DNA from: a virus
Taxonomy: Duplodnaviria > Caudoviricetes
DNA: 54,020 nt
Direction: 5' to 3' (one strand)
IMG/VR virus record: IMGVR_UViG_3300045410_000054
Span: 1-54,020 of that record
This document shows, one piece after another, positions 293-48,444 of the stretch. The notes beneath the pieces are model-generated. The model was given only the letters and a program-made list of their open reading frames with translations, had not been told where the DNA came from and ran no database searches. The stretch's first letter is position 1. The number at the start of each line of letters is the position of its first letter. Made by a program: the position numbers and the translations under genes.

Positions 293-508
293 TCAGAACC
301 CCCGGCCGCTGACGAGGACCGCGTTTACCCGGTCGCTGACCTCGTTGGCCTCGTCGAGGTCCATCTCGTCGAGGCCGGCGTAGCTGTTGGCGTCAACGTA
401 ATCGTGCAGCTCGGAGAAGCTGCACACCGCGGAGGGCACGGTGCCGTTGTCGATGTCCTGACGGATCTCGGCCAGCACCTGGGTTACCAGGGTGTCGGTG
501 TGGGTCAT
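293..508 (-). CDS. small acidic hypothetical protein
   Basis: ORF MTHTDTLV..., RBS GAAGGGG upstream, co-transcribed with the RHH gene. Confidence 0.7.
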   Translation of the reverse strand: MTHTDTLVTQVLAEIRQDIDNGTVPSAVCSFSELHDYVDANSYAGLDEMDLDEANEVSDRVNAVLVSGRGF

Positions 509-15356: not shown

Positions 15357-15617
15357 GTGACCACCCCCAACCCGGACCTCGCCGCCAAGTGGGAGCGGGC
15401 CGACGAACAGCTCACCATCCTGGTAGGCGCCGCCGCGACCGACCTACTCGCACAGCCGCCACACATGGTCGCCATCGGCCTGGCCCAACTCATGACCCGC
15501 CGCTACCCCGCCGACATCATCGTCGGCTACGCTGCCATGGCCATCACCCGGCTCGGCATGGCACAGAAGGCCCGGCTGGAAAATGACGGGGGGGCCAACA
15601 CCCCCCCCACCGGCTGA
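15357..15617 (+). CDS. hypothetical protein
   Basis: GGAGG RBS. Confidence 0.55.
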   Translation: MTTPNPDLAAKWERADEQLTILVGAAATDLLAQPPHMVAIGLAQLMTRRYPADIIVGYAAMAITRLGMAQKARLENDGGANTPPTG

Positions 15618-39328: not shown

Positions 39329-40372
39329 ATGCGTGCTCTGTGGCTGGTCGACGCGCTGACCGACGCCGGTCTCCAGGTGGTGCCGCACATCGGCTGGCAG
39401 ACCCGCGGATGGGAGCCGTGGGCGCCCCAGTACGGGATCGTCCACGCCACCGCCGCACCAGCCACCCAGGCCGATGAGGACCAGGTGCGGATCGTCCGCG
39501 ACGGCCACTCCACCCTGGCCGGGCCGATCGCCAACTGCTGCGTCGACCGGACGGGCCGGTGGCATGTGCTCGCGTCGGGCCGGTGCAACACCGCCCTGAC
39601 CGGCTGGGCCGGCCCCGCACAGGGGCTCGGCAACACGAACCTGCTCGGGGTGGAAGCCAACAACGACAACCGGGCCGAGCCGTGGCCGGCTGTGCAGTAC
39701 GAGGCGTACGCCCGCGGCTGGGCTGCGATCTGCACCCGGCTCGGCTGGCCGGCCAGGAAGCTGGTCGGGCACAAGGAGCACCAGCCCGGAGACAAGAGCG
39801 ACCCGACATTCGCGATGGACGCCTTCCGTCACCGGGTCACGCAGCTACTCGAGGGAGACGACATGTGGACTGAGAGCCTGAACCGCGACGGCAGCGGGCC
39901 GCAGATCACCGCCCTGGCCGATGACACGATGCCGGACAACTGGTCGCGGGTCGCCGCCGGGCTGCTCGGCTACGCGGCGATGGCCGCGTCCCCGGCCGGC
40001 CGGTCGCGGGCCGCGGCCGACGTGTGGCAGCGGGAGAACCCGACCGCCGGCGCCTCGTACGGGACGCTGGTGCGGCAGGTCCACGACGGCTCGGCGCCGG
40101 GTCAGCTCCGGGACCGGGAGCTGCTGGAGGCGGTGCTGGCTGCGGTCACCGGCGGCGACGCGCTGGCGGTGTTGGCCAGGATCGACCAGCACCACCTCGA
40201 GGTCAGCATCCGGCTGGCGGAGATGGACACGGCGCGGGAGGTGGCCGAGCGGGCCGCGGCGGCGGAGCGGGCGGAGCTGGCGGAGCTGGTGCGGCAGGCC
40301 ACCAGCGGCGAGCGGGACGCGGCCGCGGTGGTGGACGAGATCGCCCGGCGGCTGGCCCCGGTCCCGGGCTGA
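39329..40372 (+). CDS. endolysin, N-acetylmuramoyl-L-alanine amidase
   Basis: GWQTRG, IVHATA, GVEA, GHKEH...KSDP. Confidence 0.88.
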   Translation: MRALWLVDALTDAGLQVVPHIGWQTRGWEPWAPQYGIVHATAAPATQADEDQVRIVRDGHSTLAGPIANCCVDRTGRWHVLASGRCNTALTGWAGPAQGLGNTNLLGVEANNDNRAEPWPAVQYEAYARGWAAICTRLGWPARKLVGHKEHQPGDKSDPTFAMDAFRHRVTQLLEGDDMWTESLNRDGSGPQITALADDTMPDNWSRVAAGLLGYAAMAASPAGRSRAAADVWQRENPTAGASYGTLVRQVHDGSAPGQLRDRELLEAVLAAVTGGDALAVLARIDQHHLEVSIRLAEMDTAREVAERAAAAERAELAELVRQATSGERDAAAVVDEIARRLAPVPG

Positions 40373-42384: not shown

Positions 42385-42942
42385 TCAGAGCTCCGACACG
42401 TCGGTGATCTCCACATCCAGCTCCACGTCGGAGGCTGTGCTGACGGACTCCATCTCCTCCGTTGAGTACTGGTCGCCGGTCACGGTCAGCGTGTTGATGT
42501 ACGAACTCTCGCCACCGCTGATCTCGTAGGTCACCTCATATGTGATCGCCGGGTCGAGGTCGCCGCCGGTGTGGACGTAGGCCAGCTCGATCCGGAAGTC
42601 GATCAGGCAGCCGGCCGAGCCGAAGCACTCCTTCGACAGGGTCTTCACCGTCAGCTCGAAGTCCTCGGCGTCCGGCTCGTGGTACAGCGCGTCGGGTTCG
42701 TCGGCCGGCTCGCCGTCGCCGACCGGCTCGGCAGTCTCCGGCCGGATGTCGCGGCCGGGATCGTCCAAGTCGGTGCCGGCGACGCCGACCACAGCGAGGA
42801 TTCCGACGCCGATGCAGCACAGGGCAACCAGGGTGATGCTGATCGCGATCAGCCAGGTGGGGGCGGTGAGCTTGTGTTTGGGCGCCTTCACCGGTGGCTG
42901 GCCGTGGGTCGGCTGCGGGTCGGGCTGCGGCTGGTAGGTCAT
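42385..42942 (-). CDS. membrane-anchored acidic protein (superinfection-exclusion candidate)
   Basis: TM segment followed by extracellular KECFGSAGC domain. Confidence 0.7.
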   Translation of the reverse strand: MTYQPQPDPQPTHGQPPVKAPKHKLTAPTWLIAISITLVALCCIGVGILAVVGVAGTDLDDPGRDIRPETAEPVGDGEPADEPDALYHEPDAEDFELTVKTLSKECFGSAGCLIDFRIELAYVHTGGDLDPAITYEVTYEISGGESSYINTLTVTGDQYSTEEMESVSTASDVELDVEITDVSEL

Positions 42943-43024
42943 GGGATCCTGCTCTCTGGTCGGGTGGCGGGTCTGCTCCGCCACTCGGCCCCCGCCCGCC
43001 GGAGCGGGTGAGGACCGGGCAGCG

Positions 43025-43411
43025 TCAGGCCAGCGACTCTGGCCCGCCGGCCACGAACACGGCGCGGCCGTCGTCGTCGCGGTAGGCGCCGGTCTCGCCG
43101 GCGGCCAGGGACTGGGCGTGCTCAGCTGCGGTGGCCGGGCGGATCGCCTCGCCGGTGGTGTAGTCGGTCAGCGTGCCGTGGTCCTGCCATCCCGGGAAGT
43201 TCACGCTGGTACCGTGACGGCCTGCGTGCCCTGTGGTCAGAGCGCAAGTCTCGCCCGGTTCGTCCGGGTTGGCCGCGCCACACTCGCCGGACACGAACAC
43301 CGCGCTGATCGGGGTGCTGGCGGACTCGGGGCTGTGGGTCATGGTGGTCTCCTCAGTGTCGGTGGGGATGGTGACTCGGCGCTGCAGCGTCTCGGACCAG
43401 TACGTACGCAT
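43025..43411 (-). CDS. hypothetical protein
   Basis: ORF in the leftward operon. Confidence 0.55.
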   Translation of the reverse strand: MRTYWSETLQRRVTIPTDTEETTMTHSPESASTPISAVFVSGECGAANPDEPGETCALTTGHAGRHGTSVNFPGWQDHGTLTDYTTGEAIRPATAAEHAQSLAAGETGAYRDDDGRAVFVAGGPESLA

Positions 43412-43416
43412 CAAGA

Positions 43417-43662
43417 TCACCCTTCCTGGTTGTCGGTGGACACGGTCCAGTCGTCCAGCAGGTCACCCAGCAGCGCCCCGTGGACCTCCCGCGGGCCGAG
43501 CTGCTCACCCCACCCGTCACTGCGCTCGGCGATCAGCAGGTAGCCGCTGTCTGGGTGCTGGGAGTACCGGCGCCAGCCCAGCTCGGGCCTGCCGGGGTGG
43601 ACCATCAGGACCACCAGTCCGGCGTCAAGTCGGTCGCGAAGTTCCTCGGCGGTGATGTCCAT
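43417..43662 (-). CDS. hypothetical protein
   Basis: GAGAGG RBS. Confidence 0.6.
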   Translation of the reverse strand: MDITAEELRDRLDAGLVVLMVHPGRPELGWRRYSQHPDSGYLLIAERSDGWGEQLGPREVHGALLGDLLDDWTVSTDNQEG

Positions 43663-43768
43663 CAAGATCAACCTCTCGGTGGTGGTAGTGGGTGGTGGGT
43701 GGTGGGTGGTGGTGGTGGGTGTCAGTGTGGCCGACGGTGGGGCACCGGGCCCCGGAACCCCGCCCCGG

Positions 43769-43993
43769 TCAGCGCAGCTGGTCCTCGGTGACGTGGTAGC
43801 CGCTCCAGCCGCCGCCGACGCTCATGGTCCAGCGGGCCTTACGGCCCGACGCGTCCTCCTCCCAGGTCACAGCCTCGTCGGGGAACAGCTCGTCGCGGTA
43901 CTCGGCCCGCTCCCGGGCGGCTGCCTGCGCAGCCGGACGCTCCCGGTAGGCACCCAGGTAGCCGCTGTTGCAGAACAGGGTGTAGATGGTCAT
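43769..43993 (-). CDS. hypothetical protein
   Basis: First gene downstream of the structured leader; AGGA RBS. Confidence 0.65.
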   Translation of the reverse strand: MTIYTLFCNSGYLGAYRERPAAQAAARERAEYRDELFPDEAVTWEEDASGRKARWTMSVGGGWSGYHVTEDQLR

Positions 43994-44013
43994 AGCGTTC
44001 CTGTCCTCTCTCG

Positions 44014-44435
44014 GTCCTGCATCCACCGGCACAGCCAGCGACGCTGCACTTTCATCCGCGCGTTCCGCAAGCGGGGCGGGTATAGCGGCGACGACTAGCG
44101 GCCACGCCCAGACCGTGACCTTGCCGTGCCGCGCGGCTTCCCCCGGTTACCCGGGTCCGCTGGGCGCTGGCTGTGCTGGAGGCTGCAGGTCCCTGCGTCC
44201 TGCATCCTCCTAGCTGGCGCGGGTGTAGGGCTCTGATAGGGGGCGACTTCGGCCTATCCCCGGTTCCCGTGAGCCAGTCCGGGGAGCACATCGCCGCGTG
44301 ACGGGTCAGCCGCGCCAGCTAGGAGGCTGCAGGTCCTCCTTCCTTCTCCTCCCGGTTCCGGCTTCCGCTCCCCTTTCGGATCTTCGCGGCCCTGTGGTTT
44401 CTCCTGAGCTTCGGGCTTCTCTTTTCTCTTGTACC
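44014..44435 (-). ncRNA. candidate structured non-coding RNA/leader with two tandem long-stem units
   Basis: Stems 44016-44040/44165-44189 and 44199-44222/44310-44333 share terminal sequences; upstream promoter; no credible ORF. Confidence 0.6.
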
Positions 44436-44438
44436 TTA

Positions 44439-44523
44439 AGTATGCCAAGTCGGTTGGCAAAGTGCAAGTGAGTTGGCATCATCCGTTCGGGTGAATCCAC
44501 TTGGCCAAGTGGCTTGCTACACT
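44439..44523. promoter_or_regulatory. divergent promoters with TGCCAA/TTGGCA operators
   Basis: Minus TTGCAC-N17-CATACT; plus -10 TACACT 6 nt before ATG 44530; palindrome CCACTTGGCCAAGTGG 44497-44512. Confidence 0.7.
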
Positions 44524-44529
44524 GGGGAC

Positions 44530-44787
44530 ATGACCAAGCTCCCCGACCACTCCATCCAGCTGCTCCGCCGCCGACTGACCCGCGACGCCGACCGGTACAT
44601 CAAGGCGACCGCCGACCAGGCCCGCGCCCGGGAGACGCTGACCGAGTCGGTCAGGATGGCCGCCAAGGCGGGCGTGCGGCAGGTCGACATCCTCGCCGAC
44701 ATCAGAGGGGTGTGGACCCGCGAGCATGTCCGCCAGCTGAACCGGCCGAAGCCGGACGCCAACGATCTTGATCGGAGTGAGCCATGA
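44530..44787 (+). CDS. small HTH DNA-binding protein (leaderless)
   Basis: AGVRQVDIL...WTREHVRQL. Confidence 0.7.
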   Translation: MTKLPDHSIQLLRRRLTRDADRYIKATADQARARETLTESVRMAAKAGVRQVDILADIRGVWTREHVRQLNRPKPDANDLDRSEP

Positions 44788-45040
44788 CCACGCCGACCGC
44801 GCCCGAGGGGAGCGCCCGGTGATCAAGGTAGCGGGGGAGCTCGGCGGCCGGCCGTTCATGCTGCTCGGGCTGTCCGGCGAGAACGTGACCCGGCTGGCGG
44901 CCGGTGAGCCGATCGCGTTCGACGGGGACCAGCTCGGCTACGCCGGCAAGGTCGTCATCCTGTACGGGCGTACCGAGGCGGACATCAAGGCTCAGCTGCG
45001 GGAACACGGGCTGGTGCCGCCGGATGGGAGTGGGGGATGA
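44777..45040 (+). CDS. hypothetical protein
   Basis: LLGLSGENVTRL..GEPI. Confidence 0.6.
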   Translation: MSHDHADRARGERPVIKVAGELGGRPFMLLGLSGENVTRLAAGEPIAFDGDQLGYAGKVVILYGRTEADIKAQLREHGLVPPDGSGG

Positions 45041-45252: not shown

Positions 45253-45737
45253 CGCTGGCGGAGTTTGTGCTCGCCCGGCGGGCCGAGGTTGAGCGGCTGG
45301 CCAGGCGTGCCGACACGCTGCAGCGCTGGCAGGCGGTGACTAACGCCCCATACGGGCCACAAGTCCGCGTCGGCGACGGCCCCGACATCGGCGACCAGGA
45401 GCCGGAGTGGCGGCGAGACGTGAACGTCCAGGTGTGGCAGTGCGATGACGAGCAGGACGGCTGCCCGGACATGGCCCGGGGGTGGATAGCGGAGGCTGAG
45501 CACATCGCCGCCCACGACCCGGACCGGGTGCTGCGCCGGGTGGAGGCCGATCGGCAGATCGTTGCGCTGCATCACCTCCTTGAGTACCGCGGCCCGGGCG
45601 ACCCGCCCGGGTGTGCCGTCTGCTCTTGGCGTGATGACCAGGATGAGCTGCACGGGGACTGGCCGTGCCCGACGCTGCGCCTGCTCGGGGTGGTCGACGA
45701 CGACCACCCCGACTACCGGCCGGAGTGGCGGCCCTAA
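45249..45737 (+). CDS. DUF6221-like protein
   Basis: LAEFVLAR, HIAAHDPDRVLRRVEA, HPDYRPEWRP. Confidence 0.75.
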   Translation: MTLAEFVLARRAEVERLARRADTLQRWQAVTNAPYGPQVRVGDGPDIGDQEPEWRRDVNVQVWQCDDEQDGCPDMARGWIAEAEHIAAHDPDRVLRRVEADRQIVALHHLLEYRGPGDPPGCAVCSWRDDQDELHGDWPCPTLRLLGVVDDDHPDYRPEWRP

Positions 45738-46000
45738 AGGGCGAGGGCGGCTCTGCAAAGGCGGGCGGCTGCGTCGCCCTTCCCGGTCAGCCGGTAGTAG
45801 CGGCGACGCGGCCGGCGGACGGACTGCGGCGCCACGTCCTCCGCGGCGGAGTCGACCCAGCCGGCGCGCTCCAGCCGGGCCAGGATCGGGTACATCGTCC
45901 CGGATTGCAGGCCGGTCTCCCGCATCAGCTCCAGGCCGTACCGGGGCTGCGGGTCCAGGAGGGCGGCGAGGACCTTCGCCGTGGCTACAGTCACGTGCAC
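45734..46000 (-). CDS. PadR-family regulator
   Basis: YGLEL...GLQSGTMYPILARLERAGWV...RRRYYRLT. Confidence 0.88.
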   Translation of the reverse strand: MHVTVATAKVLAALLDPQPRYGLELMRETGLQSGTMYPILARLERAGWVDSAAEDVAPQSVRRPRRRYYRLTGKGDAAARLCRAALAL

Positions 46001-47131: not shown

Positions 47132-47926
47132 TCAGACGCCACCCGGCGGCGGCAGCGCCAGCACCGCCGCGCGCATCGCCACATCCGACACCGCGGTGTA
47201 CACCGCCGTGGTCGCCGGAGACGCGTGGCCCAGCAGCTCCTGCGTCACCCTCAGATCCCTGACCGCCGCCTGGACGTGCGTGCCGAAGTAGTGCCGCAGC
47301 CGGTGCAACCCGCCGGCCACCCCCAGCCGGCGGAACTCGGCGGCGCCCGCGTGGGACACCTGCCACGGCGTCCGCCCGGCGGCGACCAGCCCGGCCGGCA
47401 ACCCGGCCACCGCCGCCCACACCGCCGGGTGGGTGGGCACGCTGCGCTGCCGGTCGCCCTTGCCGTGCAGCCGGGTGCTCTGCTCGCTCACGTCGCCCCG
47501 GTCCAGCCGGGCGATCTCGCAACACCGCGCGCCGGAGTAGGCGGCGATCAGCGCCCACGTCCTGACCGGCTCGGCCGCATCCTCGAGGATCAGCGCGAGC
47601 TCGTGGTGCTCGACCGGCCGGGGCAGCCTGCGCGGCCGCTTTATCCTCGGCAGGTCGGCGGCCGGGTTGGCGCCGCGGAGCCGCCGCGACGCGCACACCC
47701 AGCGGTAGAAGGAGGCCAGGGCGGCGCGGTAGGCGCCGCGGGTGGCCAGGCTGGGGTGGGTGCCGAGCCAGGCGACCAGCTCCTCCGGCAGCGCCTGGCC
47801 GAGGCCGTGGGGCAGCTCCCGCGACGCGCGGGTGAGCACGCACCGGTAGGTGTCGCGGGTGGTGGCGGGGTGGCCGACGGCAGCCAGGTGGTCCAGCCAG
47901 GCGTTGATGTGGGGGGTGTCGTCCAT
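47132..47926 (-). CDS. int: tyrosine integrase/recombinase (short, Xer-like)
   Basis: YSGARCCE, GKGDRQR, HRLRH, LLGH, AVYT. Confidence 0.92.
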   Translation of the reverse strand: MDDTPHINAWLDHLAAVGHPATTRDTYRCVLTRASRELPHGLGQALPEELVAWLGTHPSLATRGAYRAALASFYRWVCASRRLRGANPAADLPRIKRPRRLPRPVEHHELALILEDAAEPVRTWALIAAYSGARCCEIARLDRGDVSEQSTRLHGKGDRQRSVPTHPAVWAAVAGLPAGLVAAGRTPWQVSHAGAAEFRRLGVAGGLHRLRHYFGTHVQAAVRDLRVTQELLGHASPATTAVYTAVSDVAMRAAVLALPPPGGV

Positions 47927-47994
47927 GCCCGGACACTCGAGCTGGCCGGGTGTGCCGGGTCGCACGCGGGGTGTGGTGGCCACCCGGGTGGGTG

Positions 47995-48444
47995 TCATCC
48001 GTGTTGCCATGCGGGTCTGCGCGTCCGGCCGGTTGCGGTGGTGGCGGTGGGTCGGCGGGTTGTCCGGGTGGTGGATGCTGGTGCGGTACGTACGGCTGAG
48101 CTGGCGGGGTGGGTGTTGGCGCGGTGGCTCATACTTTCGGTCAGCGTCCCGGAACGATGATTAAGGTCGCGGGGGTGTCGGCGCTCGGTTGCCAGCTGGC
48201 CGCCGCGTAGCAGCCATAGCAGGTCGACCCCCAGCCCCTCGCTGATCTTCTCCGCCGTGTCGACCTTGTCCCGCGGCTGCACGCCACGTTCCCAGTTGGC
48301 CCAGTTCTCGCGGCTCAGGCCGCACTTCTCGGCCGCGTCGCTGTAGGTCAAGTTCCCGGCGTGCAGCCGCGCGAGCATCAGCCTTGCGGCGAACGTGTCG
48401 GCCGGGATGCTCCGCGAGCCGACCGCCGTATCCGTCGATGTCAT
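47995..48444 (-). CDS. immunity repressor (XRE HTH) with low-complexity C-tail
   Basis: LTYSDAAEKCGLSRENWANWERG; divergent from the cro-like gene. Confidence 0.85.
   Translation of the reverse strand: MTSTDTAVGSRSIPADTFAARLMLARLHAGNLTYSDAAEKCGLSRENWANWERGVQPRDKVDTAEKISEGLGVDLLWLLRGGQLATERRHPRDLNHRSGTLTESMSHRANTHPASSAVRTAPASTTRTTRRPTATTATGRTRRPAWQHG

Follow-up and report, generated by a model that had tools for sequence, protein, structure and literature searches.

A putative modular leader RNA of long-stem units behind the early leftward promoter of an apparently temperate phage

Introduction

The closest precedent for the locus reported here would be, by analogy, the Pleft RNA of mycobacteriophages L5, D29 and StarStuff. 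In these phages, the repressor-controlled early promoter Pleft gives rise to an abundant, stable and processed non-coding RNA (PMC5712189). An L5-type Pleft transcript of ~500 nt yields stable RNAs of 100-400 nt; these are toxic to the host, and the available part of that report gives their function as unknown (PMC5712189). Expression and processing have been shown for L5, whereas the present locus is known from sequence alone; conversely, the modular swapping of units seen here is not described for L5 in the same part of that report (PMC5712189). Our locus resembles L5 Pleft in belonging to what looks like a temperate actinobacteriophage, in lying behind a predicted repressor-controlled early leftward promoter, and in placing several hundred non-coding nucleotides before the first early gene. 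The L5 Pleft region is likewise highly structured (fold z -3.97), but its fold, as seen by us, is without the closing stalks of 20-plus bp that delimit the units described below. Moreover, blastn against 50,697 phage records returned no match to the stretch, and a model of the leader hairpin H0 (see below) scored 8.3 bits on the L5 region (L085; E 3.3).

Long RNA stalks are a feature of ribosomal RNA operons, T7 early mRNA and the lambda N leader, in which RNase III cuts helices of ~20 or more near-perfect pairs. As in these systems, several predicted RNA domains would lie in one transcript behind one promoter and leader, each closed by a helix of at least about two turns with few irregularities. 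The closing helices reach the ~20 bp or more of near-perfect pairing found in such stalks: unit 2 and most other types have 23-29 pairs with 1-3 irregularities, and unit 1 pairs at 24 of 28 positions. Unlike those precedents, the enclosed predicted RNAs are 60-160 nt long and are neither rRNA nor mRNA, and it is the host RNase III that would have to act, because the phage encodes none. Integron attC sites, by comparison, stand at the end of promoterless gene cassettes, near an integron integrase and attI, and have conserved 7-nt core sites at both ends. The units are similar to attC in being imperfect palindromes with conserved ends, centers of variable length and a helix irregularity at a fixed place; their shared ends do not resemble the attC core consensus.

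Two cis-encoded RNA antiterminators of mobile elements, HK022 put (PMC9378689) and pLS20 conAn2 (PMC8191782), also invite comparison. The available part of the latter report describes conAn2 as 260-600 bp long, with 20-bp inverted repeats around stem-loops (PMC8191782). Like put and conAn2, the units would form a structured RNA element just downstream of a mobile-element operon promoter; unlike them, they vary in number from zero to two. The units have no Rfam match of any kind. Family scans of the window's proteins detected no ConAn1-like partner. The inverted repeat of conAn2 is reported there as dispensable (PMC8191782), whereas the stalks are the most clearly maintained feature of our units. 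The locus would belong to a known kind of element, the early leader non-coding RNA of a temperate actinobacteriophage, and we have not found its modular, stalk-delimited architecture described: the literature searched contains no account of such a leader, with the limit that supplements lay outside this search and that the candidate lists of PMC10690425 may include it.

Results

The locus and its genomic setting

The window, by which we mean the whole stretch of DNA analyzed, is one IMG/VR virus record of 54,020 bases with an estimated completeness of 90% and a G+C content of ~70%. A composition-filtered ORF map combined with family scans shows rightward structural genes followed by an endolysin gene (39329-40372). 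Four small leftward genes without a known family lie 3' of the endolysin (42385-43993), followed by a divergent control region (~44440-44530) and then by rightward early genes. The phage looks temperate, because it carries genes for a tyrosine integrase (47132-48010, minus strand; Phage_integrase match, E 2e-12) and a PadR-like regulator (45734-46000, minus strand; family scan). One metagenome-assembled genome of the Micromonosporaceae contains a 47% match to the phage's endolysin; this match and one cellular H0 site, described below, provide a lead only to Micromonosporaceae as the host family. A single tRNA-Lys (UUU) gene is found just before the terminase region (15543-15617, minus strand).

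The two-unit stretch sits between a leftward promoter and the first leftward gene. The promoter, already proposed in the initial annotation, is a sigma-70-like motif read in the sequence of the minus strand at 44439..44467, with the -35 hexamer at 44462-44467, a 17-nt spacer and the -10 hexamer at 44439-44444; it would start transcription near 44432-44434. A scan with a stricter promoter consensus did not include it among its matches. A promoter regular expression matched in all 18 related leaders, on the upstream side of the leader anchor and 41-67 nt away from it, and the matches represent at least 11 versions of the motif. Repeat searches identified an operator-like inverted repeat overlapping the leftward promoter (44442..44479) and a second palindrome overlapping the rightward promoter (44494-44515), and each relative has its own, differing palindromes at the operator position. 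We infer that these palindromes over the divergent promoters are repressor sites. Each relative combines a different palindrome set with a different first rightward DNA-binding-like gene, a pattern suggestive of an exchange of immunity specificity where mosaic segments meet. A 90-aa protein encoded on the plus strand at 44768-45040 is 87% identical in contig L069, whose other listed proteins all differ, and it apparently moves together with the control region and unit 2.

Read in the predicted direction of transcription, on the minus strand throughout, the stretch begins with a purine-rich 5' leader (44337..44432; fold and alignment) that includes a small tetraloop hairpin in the fold (~44365-44389). 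This version of the leader, version 1, is common only to the window and contig L066, and it occupies the slot of H0, which is found in 16 of the 17 other contigs. Unit 2 comes first in the transcript (44197..44336); its closing helix has ~25 pairs and one G.A mismatch, and inside it are variable internal loops and an almost invariant apical arm. A short spacer read in the sequence (44193..44196) leads to unit 1, the second unit (44013..44192), which has 28-nt arms that are 86% complementary, an outer end the same as that of unit 2, and a branched interior in the predicted fold. The ribosome-binding region of the first leftward gene (43994..44012) is outside the hairpins and is conserved in the alignment. 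This first gene of the operon (43769..43993) is separate from the RNA element; its 74-aa product has no family in Pfam, PHROGs or Atlas and no relative in the genome contigs. Three further small leftward genes follow it, reaching 42385. Between leftward genes 1 and 2 (43672-43768) lie a GC-rich hairpin and a C/A-rich simple repeat, in place of which one metagenome contig has 77 other letters; this segment may be a termination or Rho-loading signal. On the plus strand, a terminator-like hairpin with a T run occurs within the leader at 44403-44415, adjoining unit 2.

The two units and their chance level

A repeat search recovered both pairs of arms: those of unit 2 (44199-44225 and 44307-44333) are 27 nt long and 93% complementary with 81 nt between them, and those of unit 1 (44013-44040 and 44165-44192) are separated by 124 nt. 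The seventh pair is mismatched in both stems, and in the same way (G.A, minus strand). The units share a 15-nt motif at their right ends, exact at 44178-44192 and 44322-44336, and a 21-nt repeat at their left ends that is 81% alike (at 44007 and 44190). A short interior motif is also common to both (44141-44151 and 44258-44268). Every element listed in the initial annotation is present at or near the position given there, and its central observation, two long-stem units with shared ends and a motif common to both payloads, is borne out. Its stem length of 24-25 bp with a mismatch at position 7 needs partial revision: the mismatch stands, and the stems span 24-28 positions. Its payload of 124 nt in unit 1 likewise holds, and the 87 nt that it gave for unit 2 becomes either 81 or 87 nt according to the stem boundary chosen.

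On its own, the 15-nt motif is weak evidence, with two matches in the window and at least two also in 10 of 100 shuffles. A two-ended pattern matched twice in the window compared with zero matches in 100 shuffles, and the 23 Watson-Crick pairs of the unit 2 stem exceed the best stem among 20 Markov resamples of the full window, which had 19; the resampling script passed over unit 1, which has four non-Watson-Crick positions. Among 59 stretches containing the 15-mer, the partner arm is absent from 54, and pattern matches in L067 and L068 were set aside as chance. Folds of the whole region are modestly better than those of shuffles on either strand (z -2.4 and -1.9).

We agree with the initial annotation that the stretch holds no credible ORF. 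None of the ORFs overlapping the units passes the composition filter, their third-position GC being low as read. Two ORFs of 79 and 36 aa were rejected as genes and judged non-coding, as indels prevent their frames from being kept in relatives; in L031, ~7-8 nt are missing at the inter-unit spacer, which breaks the frame of the 36-aa ORF (44095-44205). The two-unit stretch contains no tRNA gene. It had also been said that the units belong to no recognizable family, and an Rfam 15 cmscan of 43500-45000 with E up to 10 is in line with this: it returned two chance-level matches, both outside the units.

Selection in close relatives and spread of unit 2

Through the end motif and the 74-aa protein we reached four IMG/VR contigs with the same arrangement, in which both units are kept. 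In the four full-length close sequences, 7.6% of columns are variable in unit 2 and 8.9% in unit 1, compared with 16% in the 74-aa gene (19% at third codon positions) and 66% in the promoter and 5' leader. This pattern suggests that the units, which vary about half as much as the adjacent gene, are under purifying selection. The 5' leader aligns as two unrelated versions among these relatives. Changes within the units fall mainly in small loops and, by eye, the small interior hairpins keep their stems as their loops vary. A change at the 5' end of unit 1 adds a pair in three relatives, and another change in the unit 1 region creates a tandem purine mismatch beside the existing mismatch (both by eye).

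Further metagenome contigs carry unit 2 with other flanks, one of them with 645 other letters replacing unit 1. Scans with the unit 2 core identified two more records, the distant mosaic relatives L069 and L070, in which promoter, operators and downstream genes are all different and both unit 1 and the 74-aa gene are absent; one of the ~19 listed L069 proteins matches the window. In L069 and L070 the interior of unit 2 is nearly unchanged while its stalk differs, which points to constraint on more than the pairing. A unit 2 covariance model matches seven contigs at 161-175 bits, and unit 1 is present in five of these seven and absent from L069 and L070, suggesting that unit 2 is a widespread core and unit 1 optional. 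L069 and L070 also have GC-rich palindromes between genes, which could be termination signals.

The closing helix of unit 2 comprises 25 pairs that are all paired in 7/7 sequences, and three of them are changed on both sides. Only 1 of 500 shuffles reached the covariation score, and slid registers gave zero double changes; this alignment of seven sequences was fitted to the structure, and related sequences can beat shuffles without any structure. The double changes all come from one lineage, L069 and L070, and hence represent few independent events. We regard the covariation evidence for unit 2 as good but not abundant. In this lineage, a nearby bulged base replaces the seventh-pair mismatch. 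The idea, raised from the window alone, that pairing is kept through sequence change is thus supported twice, by unit 2 across its relatives and by the other unit types of related phages.

Leader hairpin H0 and further unit types

Between the 5' leader and the units, 16 of 18 contigs carry a ~58-nt hairpin domain, which we call H0 (L008, L031, L064, L069, L070, L075-L084 and L086; for example L075:5865-5922, minus strand). The H0 model has no match on the window, H0 is also absent from L066, and it has no match in Rfam. The 13 pairs of its structure are 97% paired; one of them has changed on both sides, and in five sequences a C-G pair has become U.G. A scan for H0 identified 13 IMG/VR contigs, 10 of them new, and all 10 have the same order of promoter, short purine-rich leader, H0, 1-2 long-stem units, ribosome-binding site and first gene. 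Across 151 Micromonosporaceae genomes the H0 model found one convincing site (L086; 48.9 bits), where a ribosome-binding site comes directly after H0 and there are zero units. Other, weak matches of the model in the host-family genomes lie in coding-like sequence and were rejected, as were three genome-contig matches to a degenerate H0 pattern, each of at most 18 bits.

The 10 new contigs contribute at least five further unit sequence types, with closing stems of 20-29 pairs. By eye, the outermost four pairs are the same as in the window's units in most types and differ in one type, and two unit variants keep the outermost pairing via wobble or a double change. Two related first-position types, A and A', differ on both sides at 3 of 12 outer pairs, and two related second-position types, B and B', at 8 of 23 pairs (by eye). 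One single-unit type has the first part of its interior in common with the window's unit 1, including a small hairpin with a different yet pairing stem (by eye). In L081 and L082, the first unit has a 5' arm like that of a related type, a 3' arm like that of L075 and extra mismatches (by eye), and looks like a recombinant stalk. Separately, the minus strand of L077 (3032-3099) matches the Streptomyces sodF sRNA family below threshold, with 40.5 bits where the gathering score is 46 (E 0.004).

The number of units, a point that the initial annotation had thought worth comparing, varies between relatives: 12 of the 18 contigs have two, five have one and one has none. Long stems are almost confined to the leader in ~150 kb of related DNA. 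The first downstream gene and the operators vary independently of unit type, and the same unit occurs before unrelated genes. Because the first downstream genes vary between contigs, the units appear tied to the early-left promoter and not to any gene. Together, these comparisons suggest that the units belong to a broader family, represented in at least 18 contigs, of non-coding RNA modules that can be exchanged.

Strand, copy number and possible targets

In the closing stems of 30 units we counted 553 Watson-Crick pairs, 12 G.U pairs and eight A.C mismatches, so that 98% of pairs are Watson-Crick (553/565 pairs). Most structured RNAs use far more G.U than these stalks. Such near-exclusive Watson-Crick pairing fits a perfect-duplex RNA and a DNA-level palindrome equally. 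Folds of the complement are better by 5.9 kcal/mol on average than those of the promoter-driven strand, probably because the latter is A-rich and U-poor. Among the 14 public runs listed as containing the stretch, none is an RNA run, and the four examined are DNA contigs. The units have no U-rich tail behind them, and processing would therefore be needed to make free-standing RNAs. The region has two terminator-like sites against a shuffle mean of 1.1, not above shuffles, and the one on the minus strand lies past the operon's end.

The window contains the end motif just twice, and both copies belong to this locus. With the unit 2 model, each phage record yields a single site and the 151 Micromonosporaceae genomes yield none, and two unit 2 patterns match zero genome contigs. 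Complementarity of the payloads to phage genes, another line suggested at the outset, led nowhere: the best match for unit 2 is 14 nt in a rightward gene (45498-45511), it is absent from the relatives' loci, and we treat it as chance. Family scans of the window detected no TROVE/Rsr gene (a control matched in two genomes), no RVT_1 reverse transcriptase and no RNase III gene.

Discussion

We give an even chance to the reading that this stretch is a modular, structured, non-coding leader RNA of a repressor-controlled early-left operon. A structured leader of autonomous domains is the simplest account, since the units are self-pairing, constrained in their interiors, tied to a promoter and exchangeable. 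The stretch would then be the long untranslated leader of the leftward operon, built of self-contained RNA modules, each folding on itself through a nearly perfect 20-29-bp stalk that closes a structured, sequence-constrained interior. Unit 2 would be the conserved core and unit 1 an accessory second module, in a slot that related phages would fill with other modules. Like the processing stalks of ribosomal RNA operons and T7 early transcripts, these stalks would let each domain fold independently.

RNA is probably the strand form in which the element functions. If so, the double-strand-specific RNase III of the host would be expected to act on the stalks, leaving stable small RNAs that end in a short helix and detaching the downstream mRNA. 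This processing step had been put forward in the initial annotation and is plausible, because 20-29 near-perfect pairs are the type of substrate that RNase III uses and because cutting would leave stable small RNAs; given the RNA, we consider cutting and no cutting evenly balanced. A host or phage factor may be the target of the released interiors, a possibility that we hold tentatively. A bolder version of the leader model, which we think improbable, sees the slot behind the early-left promoter as an accessory locus of exchangeable RNA genes whose units serve as decoys, sponges or guides against a host factor, a defense or a competing phage. The units would be released from a common precursor at the base that their stalks share, and recombination at the conserved ends and the leader hairpin would move them from phage to phage. 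If true, such a locus would account for the diversity of units (at least seven types), for their number (0-2 per phage) and for the strong constraint on their interiors, and the toxic Pleft RNAs of mycobacteriophages might have the same explanation.

The units might instead be purely cis-acting hairpins in the leader of the mRNA, such as attenuators or terminators without U tails, antitermination RNA, Rho shields or mRNA stabilizers, with no functional small RNA released. We find this rather doubtful. The slot itself suits a cis-acting role equally well: as with put and conAn2, the units come first in a multi-gene operon of a mobile element, just after its operator-flanked promoter, and the available part of the conAn2 report describes 20-bp inverted repeats around a 238-bp core with stem-loops, a flanking repeat that is, however, dispensable (PMC8191782). 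The ribosome-binding site straight after the units, with no terminator tail, would also suit such hairpins, as would the possible termination signals in the GC-rich hairpins and C/A-rich tract between leftward genes 1 and 2 and in the intergenic palindromes of L069 and L070. Yet the number (0, 1 or 2) and type of units vary among phages with similar operons, the same unit stands before unrelated genes, and the interior of unit 2 is conserved beyond the needs of a simple hairpin terminator. Moreover, Rfam matched no put-like or other known antiterminator family (put may not be in Rfam), and the single minus-strand terminator-like site lies beyond the end of the operon. A related proposal takes the near-perfect palindromes as two-way transcription insulators that stop rightward late and lysis read-through into the immunity region and damp leftward transcription. 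Their stems do fold on both strands, they separate the divergent control region from the leftward operon and the end of the rightward lysis cassette, and the plus-strand terminator-like hairpin with its T run stands beside unit 2. Nonetheless, we judge this proposal highly improbable, given that conserved 60-160-nt interiors are unnecessary for a terminator, that one relative has zero units, that no U/T tails flank the units, and that the two terminators found compare with 1.1 expected from shuffles.

The units might also work, or simply persist, as DNA palindromes, whether as hairpins or cruciforms that serve as a replication or priming signal or a recombination site, or as small non-autonomous palindromic insertions. 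Template switching, and not selection on RNA, would then keep their arms complementary. Template switching from arm to arm could copy changes without selection, and the pair counts are those expected if both strands pair or one arm is copied: the stalks are 98% Watson-Crick, and G.U (12) is not more frequent than A.C (8). The folds of the two strands are of about equal quality, units with shared ends are gained and lost as blocks, and a tyrosine integrase lies 3 kb away, albeit with several genes between it and the units. Against these points, no dispersed copies were found in the window, the phage records or the 151 host-family genomes, and 18/18 occurrences lie in one slot behind a promoter. 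In addition, the interiors show strong conservation and are rich in A on the promoter-driven strand, there is no ORF within the units, and inspection by eye shows no target-site duplication in the flanks; a DNA-level role is therefore unlikely in our view. The attC-like single-stranded DNA site that the initial annotation offered as its second option is not supported, as there is no gene cassette and the units form one promoter-linked locus, with no other copy found in the window, in related loci or in the 151 host-family genomes. The 81-124 nt enclosed by the stems hold no credible ORF, the units stand between a promoter and its operon, the sole recombinase is of the Phage_integrase type and 3 kb off, and there is no attI context.

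Several other known elements were considered and rejected. MITE or Correia-like elements would form many dispersed copies, and we found two end motifs in the window, both here, one unit 2 site per phage and 0/151 genomes; of their terminal features, the inverted ends are present and no target duplication is evident in the flanks by eye. A bacterial Y RNA acting with Rsr (Ro) has neither a TROVE gene in the record nor an Rfam match. For 6S RNA, the P4 CI and P1 c4 immunity RNAs, SRP RNA and other known RNAs, cmscan gave no match in the units. A retron msr-msd was set aside as the record has no RVT_1 and the downstream proteins have no Pfam family, and a type III toxin-antitoxin system with a ToxI-like array was set aside as the units share only their ends and the downstream genes have no family match.

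As a modular leader RNA, the locus would matter in several ways. Early structured RNAs of actinobacteriophages are known only as the abundant, unexplained toxic Pleft RNAs of L5 and D29, and the present locus would provide a second, unrelated example. It would bring comparative evidence that is absent for L5 and D29, namely pairing kept through double changes, interiors more conserved than the neighboring genes, and a series of phages with zero, one or two units of several types in one slot, and this series makes the function of early leader RNAs testable by module swap or deletion. At least two RNA families without an Rfam match, unit 2 and H0, would be added, and RNA modules would be seen to contribute to phage mosaicism just as protein genes do. 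In L5 itself, a stretch resembling a tRNA T-arm can be seen by eye at the 3' end of the Pleft non-coding region (L085 ~330-360, minus strand).
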